NCBI GenBank assembly: GCA_030606485.1
Contig: JAUWGH010000003.1
Coordinates: 390,001 to 422,000 of the forward strand
DNA: 32,000 bases
Source of the DNA: Promethearchaeota archaeon
GTDB taxonomy: Archaea > Asgardarchaeota > Lokiarchaeia > Sigyniarchaeales > SOKP01
Direction: 5' to 3'
Shown here: in pieces, positions 7,149-12,745 of the stretch
Position numbering within the stretch: position 1 is the stretch's first letter
Layout: each line of letters starts with the position of its first letter
Made by a program: the position numbers and the translations under genes
Notes under the pieces: model-generated
Told to the model about the DNA's origin: nothing
The model's input: only the letters and a program-made list of their open reading frames with translations
Database searches by the model: none

Positions 7149-7484
7149 TTAAATATTTCTTATTTTATCAATTAATTCCTTACTTTTACTACCAAAAACA
7201 CGTATATAAGTATCTTTTTCTTGTTCCACATCAAATTTAGAAGTAATACCTCTTTTTTTTATTTCTTCAAGAAGATCCCATAGTGAGGCACCCGAAATAT
7301 TTGCTGCTCGCTCTAATGTATCTCCTTTTTGATATAAATTAATAGCAACTTCTATTTTTTGCTGCTCAATCCCAGTATTAATTATTTTTCTAACAATTGT
7401 CGCTCTATCTACCCCGAGTAAATCAGCTAAATGATCGAGTTCATCAATTATCTCCTTCTTCATTCTTACTGAAAGATTAATCAT
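7149..7484 (-). CDS. UPF0175-family protein with N-terminal ribbon-helix-helix (antitoxin/regulator-like)
   Basis: LSVRMKKEIIDELDHLADLLGVDRATIVRKII (RHH), then AINLYQKGDTLERAANISGASLWDLLEEIKKRGI (UPF0175 HTH). Confidence 0.8.
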   Translation of the reverse strand: MINLSVRMKKEIIDELDHLADLLGVDRATIVRKIINTGIEQQKIEVAINLYQKGDTLERAANISGASLWDLLEEIKKRGITSKFDVEQEKDTYIRVFGSKSKELIDKIRNI

Positions 7485-7596: not shown

Positions 7597-8577
7597 TTAA
7601 GGTGGATATCGTAGTTCATAGATACTCTTTCCGCCGTTTAATGGTCCTTTTATGTATTCCATTACTTCTTTAGGATCTCTTTGTGTTATACCTTCTATTG
7701 GAGGTAATTTTCCAGGAGGAAAAGTTTTCAATATATCATTTACTAATTTCTCAAGGTAATCTAAAAGCGCTTCAATTCCTGGTTTTCCTTTCTCAAATGT
7801 TCCTTTACTGGGCCAACCAACATTTCCCTCGGGATAAGCAGACACCTCAATTGGACCAAAACCAACCTGACCATACCATTTTATCGGTTTCTGATAAATA
7901 TTACCTGCTTTATCAACATGTCCTTCAGGCATCCATCCAACCGGTTTATTATCAGTTGCATTTTCTAATTTTATCATCTCAGGAAATAAAACCATGGAAA
8001 ATGATGTTTCAGCCTCATCTGCATGAATAAAAGGTGTATCAAATGGTCCGCCGTGTTCTTTATCCATACAATGCTCTGGAATTGCGTGATACCAATTTAC
8101 ATTACAAATAACTGCTGGCAATTGATAATTTTTTGCCCATTCATGAATCGCAGAAGGAATTACATATTCTTGCCCATGTCCATTTAACAAAATCTGTTTT
8201 CTAAAACCCAAGTTCCATAATCCAGCGATTACTGCTCGAATCATCCCCTTAAAATGTACTTCTGGCACAATGATACTACCAGGCATTCCTACATGATGAT
8301 AAGGATGGCTTCCATACCATATTGGTTCAGCTACCGTGCATCCAGTTTTTTCCGCAATCAATTCCGCCATTCGGGTCACAAGAAATGTATCTTCACCAAT
8401 ACATGCAGCGCCTCCATGATTTTCTGTTGATCCAAGAGGTACGATTATAACATCGTTGTTCTTTAATCGTTTCTGAATCTCAGTTATACTCATCGTTTGT
8501 AAATAGATTCCATCGGGTTTATCCATTAAACCTCCTTTTGGAGGTAAATCCCATTTGCTCATATATTTCACATCCAA
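7597..8577 (-). CDS. iolN: 3-dehydro-scyllo-inosose hydrolase (creatininase family)
   Basis: GSTENHG, GEDTFLVTRMAE, EPIWYGSHPYHHVGMPG, KQILLNGHGQE, TPFIHADEAETS and EGHVDKAGN match Thermotoga IolN as recalled. Confidence 0.9.
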   Translation of the reverse strand: MDVKYMSKWDLPPKGGLMDKPDGIYLQTMSITEIQKRLKNNDVIIVPLGSTENHGGAACIGEDTFLVTRMAELIAEKTGCTVAEPIWYGSHPYHHVGMPGSIIVPEVHFKGMIRAVIAGLWNLGFRKQILLNGHGQEYVIPSAIHEWAKNYQLPAVICNVNWYHAIPEHCMDKEHGGPFDTPFIHADEAETSFSMVLFPEMIKLENATDNKPVGWMPEGHVDKAGNIYQKPIKWYGQVGFGPIEVSAYPEGNVGWPSKGTFEKGKPGIEALLDYLEKLVNDILKTFPPGKLPPIEGITQRDPKEVMEYIKGPLNGGKSIYELRYPP

Positions 8578-8662
8578 AATATAATTTTGTTTGATTATAA
8601 AAATGTTTTATAAATGATAAATTTTGTTAGGAAGTTAAAGTAAAGAAATCTCATTTTTTATA

Positions 8663-8673
8663 TCTTACTGTAA
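8663..8673 (-). promoter_or_regulatory. Candidate operator TTACAGTAAGA upstream of iolN
   Basis: + strand TCTTACTGTAA. On the iolN sense strand it abuts a TATAAAAA element. Confidence 0.4.
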
Positions 8674-8840
8674 GCAATAAGAACAAAAAAGTAAATTTAA
8701 TACAAATAGGATTATATTGTTTGAAAAATCTTATCCTATAGAATAGTAAAAAATTATAAATAGAAATAATCAATTATTAATCATTCTTAAAAGTTAATAT
8801 AAGAATTTCAAGGGAGAAAATTAAAAATTATTGATGGTGT

Positions 8841-11800
8841 ATGCTTCAAGGAGAAACCAAAGAGGTTTTATTAGAAAAAGCAAGGTTTGAAGAGAAAAGT
8901 TATAATTGGACGGAAGTTGCTAGGCTTTACGAACAGGTAGTGCAGGTTTATTTAGATAAAAAAGTTGTTGAGAAGGCTGCAGAGTGTTACAAAAAGATTG
9001 GATATGCTTATTCACGTGCTGCTAATAAATCCGATTCGGCAGAAGAATATTTGAAATTAAATAAAAATGCTGTTAAATCTTATAAAAAGGCTGCCGATAT
9101 CTATAAAGAGATCGATAAAAGTGTTGAAGTGTTAGAATGTGAAGCAGAAGCTTTATACTTCAATGGAATTATGGAGGATTCTCTTATAGGAGCATATAAT
9201 TCTCTCAGAAAATCTTATGAACTTTTTATTAAGGCAAGCGAGATTTATTCCAAGAAAAGTGATCAAGAAAGTTTTGCGAGAACTCTGAGCCGAGCAATTA
9301 CGTCTTTGAGTCTATTTTCATCTACTTTTTATGAACATGGTTATTTTAAGCAATTATTTCAAGAAGGAAAGGATTTATCAATTAAATCCTGGAATGCTTC
9401 AATGCAAATTAAAAATACTCAATACATAGCCGAAACTTTACGAGCTAATTTTCTTTTTTTAGGGAATTTAACATTTGTTATAGATTTTAAGTGGGATGAA
9501 AAGTTCAAGGAATGGTGTAATGAAGCTCTTTTAAGATGTGATAAAAGTTTAATGCTTATAGAGGAAAGTGATGATTATGGATTTCTTGGAATAATTTACT
9601 CTACTGTTGGTAGTTTCTATGGGTTCTATGGAGTTCAACTTATTGAAAATGAAATTAAGCAAAGGCAAAATATTAATAAAGGATTAAAATTGCTTGAAAA
9701 GGGTTTGGAATACGCAAGAAAAGCTGAAGACAAGCAAATAATACTTTGGTCAGTATTTTGGTTAGATTGGTGGGCTTGGCTTGGTGGTAGAGTTGATTAT
9801 CTTCAGAAGAGAATATTTGATGACCTTCAAATATATGAGAAAATATCTAAAATATATAAAAATTTATGCAATCCTTTTAATTGGATGGCTACTATTTTTC
9901 CTGCAATCTATTATACAAATTTTGCTCAGAGAAGCTTTTTTACTTCAGCTCAGAGGAAAAGATATGCTGAAAAAGGAATTAAATATGCTAATACATGCAT
10001 AAAAATTTCACCTCTTTCACCTTGGTCTGCATTAGCATATCAGATGTTGACTTGGATATATTCACAATTAACTACTCTTGCTAAAGAAAAGGATGAAAGG
10101 GATAAAAACGCTCAAAAGATGTTAGAATATGCTAAAAAAGCTGAAGAAATTGCTGAAAATTACGAAGGAGGATTAGCTAGATCTGCTCAATATTCATCTA
10201 TGTTCAGAGCCTATAAAACTCTTGCAGATAACGCCGAGAATAAGGAAGATAGAATTAAGATGTTATCGGTTGCTATAGAAGCCTCTAAGAAGTATATAGA
10301 ACATGCCATGGAGTCTCGGACTGGTATTATAACAGCCCAAATGCGGTTAGGTCTTCTCTATGAAGAACTTGGCATCCTAACTGTGGAAACAGACCCATTA
10401 ATGCAGGCAAGGGAGAGCTTCCTAAATGTAATTAAAGAAAGTCTTGAAAAGGGATACTATTCTTATGCAGCAGTTACTCACGAATATATTGCACATATAG
10501 AGGATCGACTAGGAAATCACTCAGCTTCTGCAAAACATTATGAGAAAGCCCAAGAAAGTCATACAAAATCGTTAAAAAACATCGAGTACGAACCATTAAA
10601 AGACAGAGTTAAGGACCAGATAAACTATACTCGTGCTTGGAATTTAATTGAACAAGCTAAAACACATCATAAAAGGGAAAACCACTTAAAAGCGAAGGAA
10701 TGTTACGAAAATTCATGTGAGATTCTAAAAGAACTACCTAGTTACAATTATGAAGCACTCTATTATACTGCATGGATTACTCAAGAGGAAGCAGAGCAAC
10801 TCAGCAAGCAAGAAAAGCACAAAGAAGCAATAGAGAGTTACGAAAAGACTAAAAATATCTTTAATGACGCTATGAAGATGCTGATAAAATCTGCCGACCA
10901 ATCTAAAGATAAAAATGAAAGAGGAAGAATCAAGAAACTCGAGAAAGTGGCTGAAATAAGAATGAATCATTGTTCCGCCAGAGCAGACCTTGAGAAAGCA
11001 AGAATTTTAGGAAAACAGGGAGAACATCTCGCAGCTGCAGAAAAATTTTCATCCGCAGCTTCCCAATTCAGAGATATTTGCACATTCTTCAAAATTAAGC
11101 GAGAACGAGAGGAATTAGAAGCTGTTTATTATCTTTGTAAAGCTTGGGAAAGCATGGAACTTGCGGAGAAATATGAGGACCCTGATAGGTTCGCAGAAGC
11201 GGCAAATCTATTTTCAAAAGCCAGTAAACTCTTTACCGAAAGCAAACTAAAGTTGCTGGCTTCGGGAAATTCCACCTTCTGTCAAGCAATGGAGCATGGT
11301 TGCAAGTTCGACGAGTCAATAGAAATGCAAATTAAAGCGCAATTATATCCAAAGATTAAATTGATACTTAGAAAAGCAGCAATATTATATGGAAAGGGTG
11401 GTTTTGAAAGTGGGGCTGATTGGGCTCTGGCAACATCAGCTTATTTTGATGCAGCGTGGCACTTAATTAGGGCAGACGAGGAATTAGAGCTTGACAAAAG
11501 GAGGGAACTACTAGGGATTGGATCTAAGTATTTGAGATCAGCCGCAGAACTTTTTAATAAAACTGGTTATAAAGATAAGGAAAAGGAAGTTCAAGAGCGT
11601 TTAGAAAGATTGGAGAAAGAAGAGAAGATTTTATTCTCAGCTTTAAGCACTATAAGAGAACCCTCTATCTCAAGAAGTACATTAGGCATCGTTGCCCCTG
11701 CTTGCCCAATAGAAACCAGCCAATCTCCAAGAATAAGCGAAGCACGACAGATCAACGAAGAATCAAGGAGAGTCATGGAAGAAATGGTGGCAAAAAAGAA

Positions 11801-12674
11801 ATACAACCTTATCTATAGAGATTTACTCAAAGAGTATCCTAAAATTCAAAGAAGAGAATGCAGAGTAGGCATCGCCCAAATTGGTTTATCTAATACAGGT
11901 GATATATTAAGTGAATTCTATGAAGAGAACACTTTAGGTCTCTTAGGTTTACGAGAGGATAAAGTTGAAAATGTTAGAAATTTGGTTAAAAACATGATTG
12001 AAATGGCTAATACAAAAGGAGTTAATATCCTACTTTTCCCAGAAATGACCATCGACCTCAATTACGGTGAATTCCTCGAAGATATTTCAAACCTTGCTAG
12101 AGTCTATGAGATGTATATAATTCCAGGATCATATCACGACCAAGAAACAAAGCGAAACCTCAGTGTGGTAATAGGACCAGACGGAATTCTCTGGGAACAA
12201 GAGAAGCATATCCCAGCCATTATACATCTTGAGGGGAAAAGATTCAAGGAAGGAATAGACGTGGGAGACATTCCTCGAAAAACCATCATCTGCAACACGG
12301 AGTTTGGAAGAATCGCAATCGTTATATGCCGAGACTTCCTTGATATGGATCTTAGGGTGGAATTAAAAAACTTTGAGCCACCAGTGGATATAATTCTCAA
12401 CCCAGCCTTCACGCCTGTCACAGCTGACTTCAAAGCAGCCCACTTTGATGCCCGTAGATCTATCTATGCTTACTGTTATTTCGCTAACGTTGCCGAATTT
12501 GGTGACTCTCTCATATACACGCCAGAAAAGGAACGCATTGAAAGAACAATACAACCAAAGAAAGTGGATTTAATCTATAAGGATATAGACCTCTTCAAAC
12601 TGCGTTCAGAACGCAAAAAATGGGAAAAAGAAAAAAGTAAAGAAAGAAGATTTATCCAAAGCACAAGAGAATAG
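8841..12674 (+). CDS. Large TPR/alpha-solenoid protein fused to a C-terminal carbon-nitrogen hydrolase (nitrilase-superfamily) domain
   Basis: About 950 aa of helical repeats rich in A/Y/K/E (e.g. KAAECYKKIG, SASAKHYEKA, LAAAEKFSSAA). From about residue 1008 there is a nitrilase fold with an intact triad: FPE (E1068), EQEKH (K1122), ICRDF (C1163). Confidence 0.85.
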   Translation: MLQGETKEVLLEKARFEEKSYNWTEVARLYEQVVQVYLDKKVVEKAAECYKKIGYAYSRAANKSDSAEEYLKLNKNAVKSYKKAADIYKEIDKSVEVLECEAEALYFNGIMEDSLIGAYNSLRKSYELFIKASEIYSKKSDQESFARTLSRAITSLSLFSSTFYEHGYFKQLFQEGKDLSIKSWNASMQIKNTQYIAETLRANFLFLGNLTFVIDFKWDEKFKEWCNEALLRCDKSLMLIEESDDYGFLGIIYSTVGSFYGFYGVQLIENEIKQRQNINKGLKLLEKGLEYARKAEDKQIILWSVFWLDWWAWLGGRVDYLQKRIFDDLQIYEKISKIYKNLCNPFNWMATIFPAIYYTNFAQRSFFTSAQRKRYAEKGIKYANTCIKISPLSPWSALAYQMLTWIYSQLTTLAKEKDERDKNAQKMLEYAKKAEEIAENYEGGLARSAQYSSMFRAYKTLADNAENKEDRIKMLSVAIEASKKYIEHAMESRTGIITAQMRLGLLYEELGILTVETDPLMQARESFLNVIKESLEKGYYSYAAVTHEYIAHIEDRLGNHSASAKHYEKAQESHTKSLKNIEYEPLKDRVKDQINYTRAWNLIEQAKTHHKRENHLKAKECYENSCEILKELPSYNYEALYYTAWITQEEAEQLSKQEKHKEAIESYEKTKNIFNDAMKMLIKSADQSKDKNERGRIKKLEKVAEIRMNHCSARADLEKARILGKQGEHLAAAEKFSSAASQFRDICTFFKIKREREELEAVYYLCKAWESMELAEKYEDPDRFAEAANLFSKASKLFTESKLKLLASGNSTFCQAMEHGCKFDESIEMQIKAQLYPKIKLILRKAAILYGKGGFESGADWALATSAYFDAAWHLIRADEELELDKRRELLGIGSKYLRSAAELFNKTGYKDKEKEVQERLERLEKEEKILFSALSTIREPSISRSTLGIVAPACPIETSQSPRISEARQINEESRRVMEEMVAKKKYNLIYRDLLKEYPKIQRRECRVGIAQIGLSNTGDILSEFYEENTLGLLGLREDKVENVRNLVKNMIEMANTKGVNILLFPEMTIDLNYGEFLEDISNLARVYEMYIIPGSYHDQETKRNLSVVIGPDGILWEQEKHIPAIIHLEGKRFKEGIDVGDIPRKTIICNTEFGRIAIVICRDFLDMDLRVELKNFEPPVDIILNPAFTPVTADFKAAHFDARRSIYAYCYFANVAEFGDSLIYTPEKERIERTIQPKKVDLIYKDIDLFKLRSERKKWEKEKSKERRFIQSTRE

Positions 12675-12745
12675 AATTCTTGAACACCTTATTCTAAAAA
12701 ATTATAAAAAATAGATAGAAAAAATAAGGGAAATTTAATTATTAT

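Follow-up and report, generated by a model that had tools for sequence, protein, structure and literature searches.

A conserved TPR-like solenoid carries a defence-type nitrilase and other exchangeable C-terminal modules in Asgard archaea

Locus and protein layout

We analysed a 32,000-nucleotide stretch of DNA from a Promethearchaeota archaeon of the order Sigyniarchaeales (assembly GCA_030606485.1, contig JAUWGH010000003.1, positions 390,001 to 422,000, forward strand; hereafter the window, whose numbering is used throughout). The subject of this work is a single large gene in the window, encoding the protein P0001. A sequence-only reading of this DNA had described the product as a fusion of a long helical-repeat solenoid with a nitrilase domain, had noted the absence of a reverse transcriptase (RT), and had proposed a sensor-effector function. 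The open reading frame begins at an ATG and has no internal stop codon. Its features are as follows; conservation figures refer to an alignment of 120 full-length homologues.

8841..12674 (+), whole open reading frame of P0001, 1277 aa plus stop
8841..11630 (+), TPR-like alpha-solenoid, residues 1-930, 37 helices (AlphaFold2 model)
9138..10040 (+), variable solenoid sector, residues ~100-400, candidate specificity region (column identity and substitution rates)
11643..11816 (+), conserved linker, residues 935-992, predicted groove plug (alignment and docking model)
11838..12620 (+), nitrilase-superfamily (CN hydrolase) domain, residues ~1000-1260 (Pfam, PADLOC, profile and Foldseek)
12042..12044 (+), codon of catalytic Glu1068 (FPEMT), invariant in 120/120 homologues
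12204..12206 (+), codon of catalytic Lys1122 (EKH), invariant in 120/120 homologues
12327..12329 (+), codon of catalytic Cys1163 (ICRDF), invariant in 120/120 homologues
12621..12671 (+), conserved C-terminal tail, residues 1261-1277, candidate active-site lid in trans (alignment)

The proposed fusion was borne out by an all-helical AlphaFold2 (AF2) model of residues 1-930, a nitrilase fold recognized by Foldseek and the invariant triad E1068/K1122/C1163. Domain scans of the protein and of the 32-kb window likewise found neither an RT nor a nucleoside triphosphatase domain in P0001 or its neighbours, nor any CARF domain or CRISPR-Cas context.

The gene for P0001 is real and intact, and it belongs to a large family. 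A word-indexed search of public data returned ~750 relatives, in addition to a 99% identical cluster. Over their full length the best 120 share 55-67% identity with P0001; they measure 1230-1294 aa, nearly all of them 1260-1294. Named homologues come from Loki-, Thor-, Hod-, Hermod- and Odinarchaeota metagenome-assembled genomes, and as far as seen the family appears restricted to Asgard archaea. We found no description of it in the literature searched on Asgard nitrilase, TIR, TPR and defence systems. In two metatranscriptome runs from one study, contigs matched positions 9177-9649 and 11119-12070 of the gene at 97-99% identity, a hint of transcription, although DNA carry-over is possible in such libraries. 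The flanking genes were not covered by contigs of the RNA runs, which give neither expression level nor transcript ends, and no conclusion was drawn from this.

A DNA run containing a ~96%-identical strain yielded one contig with 1022 extra bases immediately after the stop codon (12668-12678); in the same contig, 182 other bases take the place of 180 in the intergenic region upstream of the gene (8564-8745). Both borders of the gene therefore differ between strains.

The nitrilase domain resembles defence-associated nitrilases

The Pfam CN_hydrolase model (PF00795) matched residues 1046-1256 at 25.3 bits against a cut-off of 23.2 (E 1.2e-5), and the domain scored 29.3 bits in a genome-wide search. 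E1068, K1122 and C1163 align with the triad contexts of the hidden Markov model (HMM). An AF2 model of residues 700-1277 matched Nit2, beta-ureidopropionase, an archaeal (Pyrococcus) amidase and D-carbamoylases with a Foldseek probability of 1.0; template modelling (TM) scores by target were 0.5-0.67 for Nit2, the PH0642 amidase and D-carbamoylase.

Within this superfamily the defence models of PADLOC led: CARF_nitrilase was the best match (2.9e-15, 53.8 bits), followed by RTasNitrilase (5.2e-12), both better than the general Pfam model, and sister modules matched RT_UG5-nitrilase (1.2e-13). A scan of the whole protein against NCBIfam, which holds curated metabolic families, returned no family at E<=1. 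Although a single-sequence search of the PDB gave marginal matches only (E>=0.02), a profile built from 39 module sequences reached the structure of DRT1 (9yfd) with an E value of 3.6e-6 over positions 55-269. This alignment spans almost the entire domain and continues beyond the catalytic cysteine through the C-terminal tail, whereas Nit2 and the metabolic enzymes align over the N-terminal half only. DRT1 was absent from the 50 best structural matches listed by the Foldseek PDB search. By model and profile scores the domain is thus placed nearer to defence-associated than to metabolic nitrilases, which upholds the earlier suggestion of an RT-associated-like subtype. The genome itself also encodes two CN hydrolases of the ordinary, stand-alone kind, with open frames of 265 and 276 aa, which score 131 and 86 bits with Pfam.

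An exhaustive search of 1.84 billion representatives delimited the module family as ~45 clusters scoring above 200 bits at 43-81% identity, after which scores dropped below 70 bits. More distant nitrilase relatives (25-35% identity) are mostly fused to LRR, HEAT, nSTAND3 or CARF domains.

At the extreme C-terminus, W1261 and I1272-Q-S-T1275 are conserved in at least 98% of the 120 homologues, and this tail aligns with the C-terminus of DRT1. In DRT1 the nitrilase acts as the effector and requires oligomerization for its activity, the conserved C-terminal end of one protomer completing the active site of its neighbour (PMC13275509). By analogy, the tail of P0001 may act as an active-site lid in trans.

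Elsewhere in the same genome (L026:4208-7597 (+), equivalent to G000:C3:74207-77596) we noted a 1129-aa protein with N-terminal LRRs and an AAA_21/AAA_15 ABC-type ATPase. It matched AriA (1e-18) and also Old, GajA and PtuA in PADLOC, and its C-terminus is weakly similar to P0001 residues 1096-1242 (E 6.8e-5). The gene adjoins an integrase-like gene near the contig end and is probably a defence gene of another architecture.

The solenoid has a conserved half and a variable sector

Residues 1-1000 were modelled by AF2 from 55 homologues with a mean predicted local distance difference test (pLDDT) of 85.8 and a predicted TM score of 0.78. The chain forms helical hairpins throughout, with 37 helices up to residue 927. 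Its best structural matches in the PDB and Atlas were the long TPR superhelices Ctr9, Ski3 and IFT-A (Foldseek TM 0.2-0.4), with E values of 1e-10 to 2e-11 and 10-14% sequence identity for Ctr9 and Ski3. In the model this likeness is generic, and no specific structural relative of the solenoid emerged from Foldseek or Atlas. Separate HMM and structure searches of the two parts, which the sequence-only reading had called for, return a generic TPR superhelix for the one and a nitrilase fold with defence-type models for the other. Pfam TPR_12 scored 20.4 bits on P0001 against a cut-off of 30.1, which homologues exceed. No P-loop nucleoside triphosphatase (NTPase) family (NACHT, NB-ARC, AAA_16 or nSTAND) matched P0001 at E<=1 in the Pfam scan.

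Conservation rises along the protein, from a column identity of 0.26-0.46 at residues ~100-400 through 0.7-0.8 at residues 700-950 to as much as 0.93 in the nitrilase core. When P0001 was compared with its 93% identical counterpart in the congener G129, the ratio of non-synonymous to synonymous substitution rates (dN/dS) was 0.34 overall, highest in the N-terminal third and 0.13-0.18 in the nitrilase, with a fragment of the neighbouring ECH gene (0.11) serving as the control. Residues 101-300 carried 17 non-synonymous and 2 synonymous changes, differing from the rest of the gene (Fisher p 0.005) on small counts. A second congener, G177, displayed the same gradient, with dN/dS values of ~0.5-0.7 over residues 1-500 that never exceeded 1, again on small counts. 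These sequence comparisons indicate relaxed or diversifying selection on the N-terminal third, positive selection not being proven, and this variable third is likely to be the specificity region.

The GC content within the gene is 0.31 at 9001-10000 and 0.36-0.38 afterwards, a step that matches the transition from the variable N-terminal part to the conserved half. Protein constraint would be a simpler explanation for it than a recombination seam.

Stand-alone proteins of ~343 aa match only residues ~660-870 of the solenoid at 39-42% identity, sometimes in genomes that have no full-length copy (G201:C17:226958-227545, G109:C110:21008-21496, G132:C40:37715-38176 and G249:C173:13290-13727).

A conserved linker is predicted to occupy the solenoid groove

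Between solenoid and nitrilase the sequence-only reading had placed a short Pro/Ser linker. A Pro/Ser-rich segment does lie at ~940-963, but it is no loose spacer, since it belongs to the most conserved stretches of the protein. Residues 935-992 contain the motif PSISRST-GI-AP-CP-ETSQSPR, in which I938, P941, S946, G949, A952, P953, E958 and P963 are kept in at least 98% of the 120 homologues; mean column identity across the linker is 73% (49 homologues). Paralogues with other C-terminal modules retain it, and their sequences diverge only past it. Across all seven forms aligned, 12 linker positions are invariant.

When residues 700-1277 were modelled without residues 1-699, the linker was disordered (pLDDT ~32). 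With the whole solenoid present, residues 951-980 reached a pLDDT of 74-84, and there was no secondary structure up to residue 964. We then folded the solenoid (residues 1-930) and the linker (935-992) as separate chains, each with its alignment, alongside three controls. The linker obtained a docking score of 0.75 versus 0.40 for the best control, with runs sharing at least 90% of contacts and a partner pLDDT of at least 76. Of 80 solved complexes 58 reach the 0.75 mark, as do 2 of 110 mismatched pairs; these counts are approximate here because we used our own alignments.

In the model the linker runs along the groove from residue ~870 back to ~270, with S960, E958 and P963 predicted to contact W600, Y596, Y567, R707, R714, W769, N810, W861 and Y868. 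Conservation of at least 90% is found at 52 of the 95 predicted contact residues and at 147 of the 835 others (odds ratio 5.7, p 3e-14), and the contacts take in 27 of the 59 invariant residues in the C-terminal half of the solenoid. The predicted packing against the linker would thus explain why this half is conserved. The modelling supports binding of the linker in the groove, the binding itself not being demonstrated.

C-terminal modules are exchanged at a fixed junction

The sequence-only reading had proposed a search of Asgard genomes for the same solenoid on other effectors, and several were found. The same solenoid and linker also end in a TIR_2 domain (E 1e-16 and 4e-13) or in a calcineurin-like phosphoesterase (Metallophos, 7e-11). 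Further copies end in a small Cys/His-rich, RING-like domain or in a ~140-aa roadblock/longin-like domain. Pfam and PADLOC gave nothing for these last two modules, and their putative identities, which come from language-model look-alikes (scores 0.88-0.92) and from reading the Cys/His pattern, are leads only. About one-sixth of the matches in our copy-number census lack the nitrilase, and a protein search seeded with a TIR form returned many more TIR (~1117 aa), phosphoesterase (~1301 aa) and short forms.

The solenoid of this TIR form is 80% identical to that of a 1274-aa protein, which has the length of the nitrilase form and no Pfam annotation, and 73% identical to those of annotated nitrilase forms. 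In a tree of the solenoids, non-nitrilase forms occupy at least four places, the TIR and RING-like modules each appearing twice. Such scattered positions demonstrate recurrent exchange at the junction.

The nitrilase module is also joined to other scaffolds. At 60-80% identity it occurs on canonical TPR_12/MalT-type arrays of 836-911 aa, on beta-helix arrays and on an AAA_16 protein. Two giant proteins built of right-handed beta-helices (NosD/Beta_helix) end in it (P0149, 1800 aa; P0150, 1616 aa), and in P0122 (1090 aa) it is flanked by an AAA_16 ATPase on one side and an alpha/beta hydrolase on the other; in these three the module is 57-79% identical.

Exchange of C-terminal cassettes by recombination is also described for polymorphic toxin systems (PMC3482391), which the module swapping of this family resembles. 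An inter-cellular toxin of this kind, delivered to competitors, would suit both the fixed junction and the tandem arrays described below. Nearly the entire length of P0001 is nevertheless a cytoplasmic-type TPR solenoid, and we saw no adjacent small immunity genes in the loci inspected. We rejected a secreted polymorphic toxin, which we consider very improbable, on the ground that the sequence showed neither a signal peptide nor a domain for secretion or trafficking, although no formal test was made for these.

One clade of solenoids has Pfam MIT-domain (PF04212) matches at the extreme N-terminus, which P0001 lacks. They occur in L017:4634-7882 (residues 11-35; E 6e-7, just under the cut-off), P0287, P0291, P0294, P0303, P0315, P0328, P0329 and P0333, and hint that this clade may bind ESCRT-III.

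The family turns over rapidly

At least 107 of 301 sampled genomes of the phylum contain a match, in 6 of 30 GTDB families; the strict filter used makes this count a floor. Of the 71 members of its GTDB family whose genomes are at least 90% complete, 30 lack the gene altogether, and the highest copy numbers are 14 (G243), 11 (G213) and 8 (G189, G150 and G309). The genome studied here has one copy, two congeners have two, and a third congener, 100% complete, has none, a zero count that was checked with a profile that detects the positive controls. In the congener G040, which is without the gene, the contig breaks off within the dehydrogenase gene upstream, and what would follow is either unassembled or absent.

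A tandem array of five genes (G189:C1:154809-173625; also L024:4789-16674) lies downstream of TauE and methyltransferase genes and comprises four full-length nitrilase forms and one 1071-aa form with another end module. Stop-interrupted fragments at G121:C76:9867-10562, G099:C268:2998-3651, G309:C1:1984804-1985298 and G207:C2:148504-148734 look like decayed copies. The family shows birth-and-death dynamics: copy numbers between 0 and 14, with zero in 100%-complete relatives, together with arrays and pseudogene fragments, imply that the gene is dispensable and turns over quickly. Flanking genes are common to two congeners only, so that synteny ends at the genus, and the gene is neither single-copy nor syntenic across its relatives.

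This turnover bears on an alternative in which the solenoid is a conserved Asgard platform, that is, a cellular regulatory scaffold that hands interchangeable output modules to a conserved cellular partner, these being an amidase, a TIR domain, a phosphoesterase, a RING-like E3 or a roadblock/longin-like GTPase regulator. Such a scaffold could serve in protein quality control, in ubiquitin-like or small-GTPase signalling, or in membrane or ESCRT-linked processes, and its nitrilase would be a protein- or cofactor-directed amidase. The very high conservation and near-fixed length of the family fit this explanation, as do the metabolic genomic neighbourhoods, the MIT-domain matches of one solenoid clade and, as leads only, the RING-like and roadblock-like ends. 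The dispensability just described speaks against it. So do the nearest nitrilase relatives, which stand in defence-type architectures, and the combination of TIR, nitrilase and phosphoesterase, a typical conflict-effector set. On balance we regard a regulatory scaffold as unlikely, though still to be reckoned with as the strongest competing explanation.

Genomic neighbourhood

P0001 lies among metabolic genes encoding dehydrogenases, a creatininase, enoyl-CoA hydratases and a xylose-isomerase-like protein. Other loci inspected also had metabolic neighbours, such as a methyltransferase, UbiA, a B12-binding protein and RACo. An intact catalytic triad and a position between metabolic genes that is kept in two congeners would suit an amidase or nitrilase of the surrounding catabolic cluster, with the solenoid as an appendage for oligomerization or localization. 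This context is not kept outside the genus, however, and in paralogues TIR or zinc-finger modules replace the enzyme on the same scaffold. No metabolic NCBIfam family was matched, and the two stand-alone CN hydrolases elsewhere in the genome have far stronger Pfam scores (131 and 86 versus 29 bits). The module swaps and the lack of a conserved context largely refute a metabolic role, which we judge to be highly unlikely.

In several genera (L015, L017, L019 and L024) family members are flanked by a ~367-aa class I methyltransferase and a 271-aa UbiA prenyltransferase, which may mark a hotspot of copy accumulation or be partners. This pair is absent from the P0001 locus; in the same genome that methyltransferase query found no match, and UbiA is on another contig. 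We therefore claim no conserved partner gene.

Between the dehydrogenase and creatininase genes, the window also encodes an antitoxin-like 111-aa protein (7149-7484, minus strand) with RHH_1 (ribbon-helix-helix) and UPF0175 matches; no obvious toxin partner is listed.

A proposed mechanism

We favour the interpretation that P0001 is an NTPase-free, autoinhibited sensor-effector of the conflict type, acting in antiviral defence or in programmed growth arrest or cell death, and put its probability at roughly 55%. For its trigger, autoinhibition, oligomerization, substrate and biological role we infer the following scheme. The ~930-residue TPR-like superhelix would serve as both sensor and scaffold. 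The conserved C-terminal half of the solenoid would form a groove that holds the protein's own linker peptide (residues ~940-975), keeping the end module tethered and probably inactive. A trigger would release or rearrange the linker; it might be a viral protein, an altered self protein or a peptide competing for the groove. Once freed, the nitrilase domains at the C-terminus could come together in the oligomer required for nitrilase activity, the conserved C-terminal tail completing the active site of the neighbour as it does in DRT1. Hydrolysis of some amide- or nitrile-bearing metabolite that is essential to the cell would then stop growth.

The sensor-effector architecture put forward in the sequence-only reading finds support: the nitrilase scores with defence-type rather than metabolic models, the gene varies in copy number and context, and the solenoid recurs on other effectors. 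The immune role and the gating by the TPR array are still inferred.

Several considerations weigh against this interpretation. An activation logic that dispenses with an NTPase switch is unprecedented and unproven. No defence island or mobile element was found beside P0001 or at the other loci inspected. Between GTDB families P0001 is 58-62% identical over 1277 aa, compared with 52-56% for the Mrp/NUBPL ATPase of the same genomes; judged by sequence, this conservation between Asgard families is like that of a housekeeping protein and, with the near-fixed length of 1264-1294 aa, atypical of a pathogen sensor. The RING-like and roadblock-like ends are regulatory and not toxins. The docking treated an intramolecular contact as one between two chains, and the docked linker could be a permanent structural feature of the protein and not a switch. 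For DRT1, moreover, the substrate of the nitrilase is unknown (PMC13275509).

We extend the proposal only tentatively, and with some doubt, to the notion that Asgard archaea own lineage-specific NTPase-free immune or cell-death receptors in which a plugged TPR superhelix gates interchangeable effectors. If so, this would be a new activation principle, in which release of a peptide plug takes the place of nucleotide exchange, and it would be present in the closest prokaryotic relatives of eukaryotes, using the TIR, RING and TPR elements of eukaryotic immunity. The Asgard expansion of proteins with TIR, RING-like and TPR modules bears on the immune and signalling building blocks present at the origin of eukaryotes. 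If the linker in the groove is a real switch, the family would provide NTPase-free gating of TIR and other effectors.

Few immune effectors are as poorly understood as the defence-type nitrilases. This family offers one that is free of RT and CARF, on a well-predicted and conserved scaffold with hundreds of natural variants in which the end has been swapped, and hence a simpler single-gene system for studying how the nitrilase is switched and what it acts on.

Comparison with known systems

The closest parallel is with DRT1 (UG1) and UG5, in which a nitrilase of the same subtype is found C-terminally, after an alpha-helical repeat region; in DRT1, as in P0001, the extreme C-terminus is conserved. 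Class 3 UG/Abi RTs bear either a nitrilase or a phosphohydrolase (PMC13275509), an alternation that recalls the nitrilase and phosphoesterase on P0001-type solenoids. Unlike DRT1, P0001 has no reverse transcriptase and no regulation by a DNA adduct, and has instead a 930-residue TPR-like solenoid with a linker predicted to dock onto it. The family is also archaeal (Asgard) and multi-copy, and the identity between the nitrilases is low (profile E 3.6e-6).

The CARF-nitrilase (CARF_m7--CARF_nitrilase in PADLOC), an ancillary effector of type III CRISPR systems, similarly joins a sensor and a nitrilase effector in one chain. Its sensor is a CARF domain for cyclic oligoadenylate, whereas that of P0001 would be a TPR solenoid outside any CRISPR-Cas context.

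With STAND/NLR-like receptors such as Avs, which are built as effector, NTPase and TPR or WD40 sensor, the family shares a repeat-array sensor and interchangeable effectors including TIR. Such receptor families likewise expand and vary in copy number, and oligomerization is the activation logic proposed here too. P0001 differs in having no P-loop NTPase, in carrying its effector at the C-terminus, and in a scaffold that is highly conserved and not hypervariable.

Finally, Ctr9 of the Paf1 complex and Ski3, the best structural matches of the solenoid, resemble the predicted arrangement of the linker in its groove. Their TPR superhelices also enclose extended peptides; in Ctr9, stretches of Paf1 and Cdc73 lie wrapped in the groove. 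With TM scores of only 0.2-0.4 and 10-14% sequence identity, the resemblance is that of solenoids in general and does not imply homology. In contrast to P0001, neither protein bears an enzyme module, and the peptide in the groove belongs to another chain.

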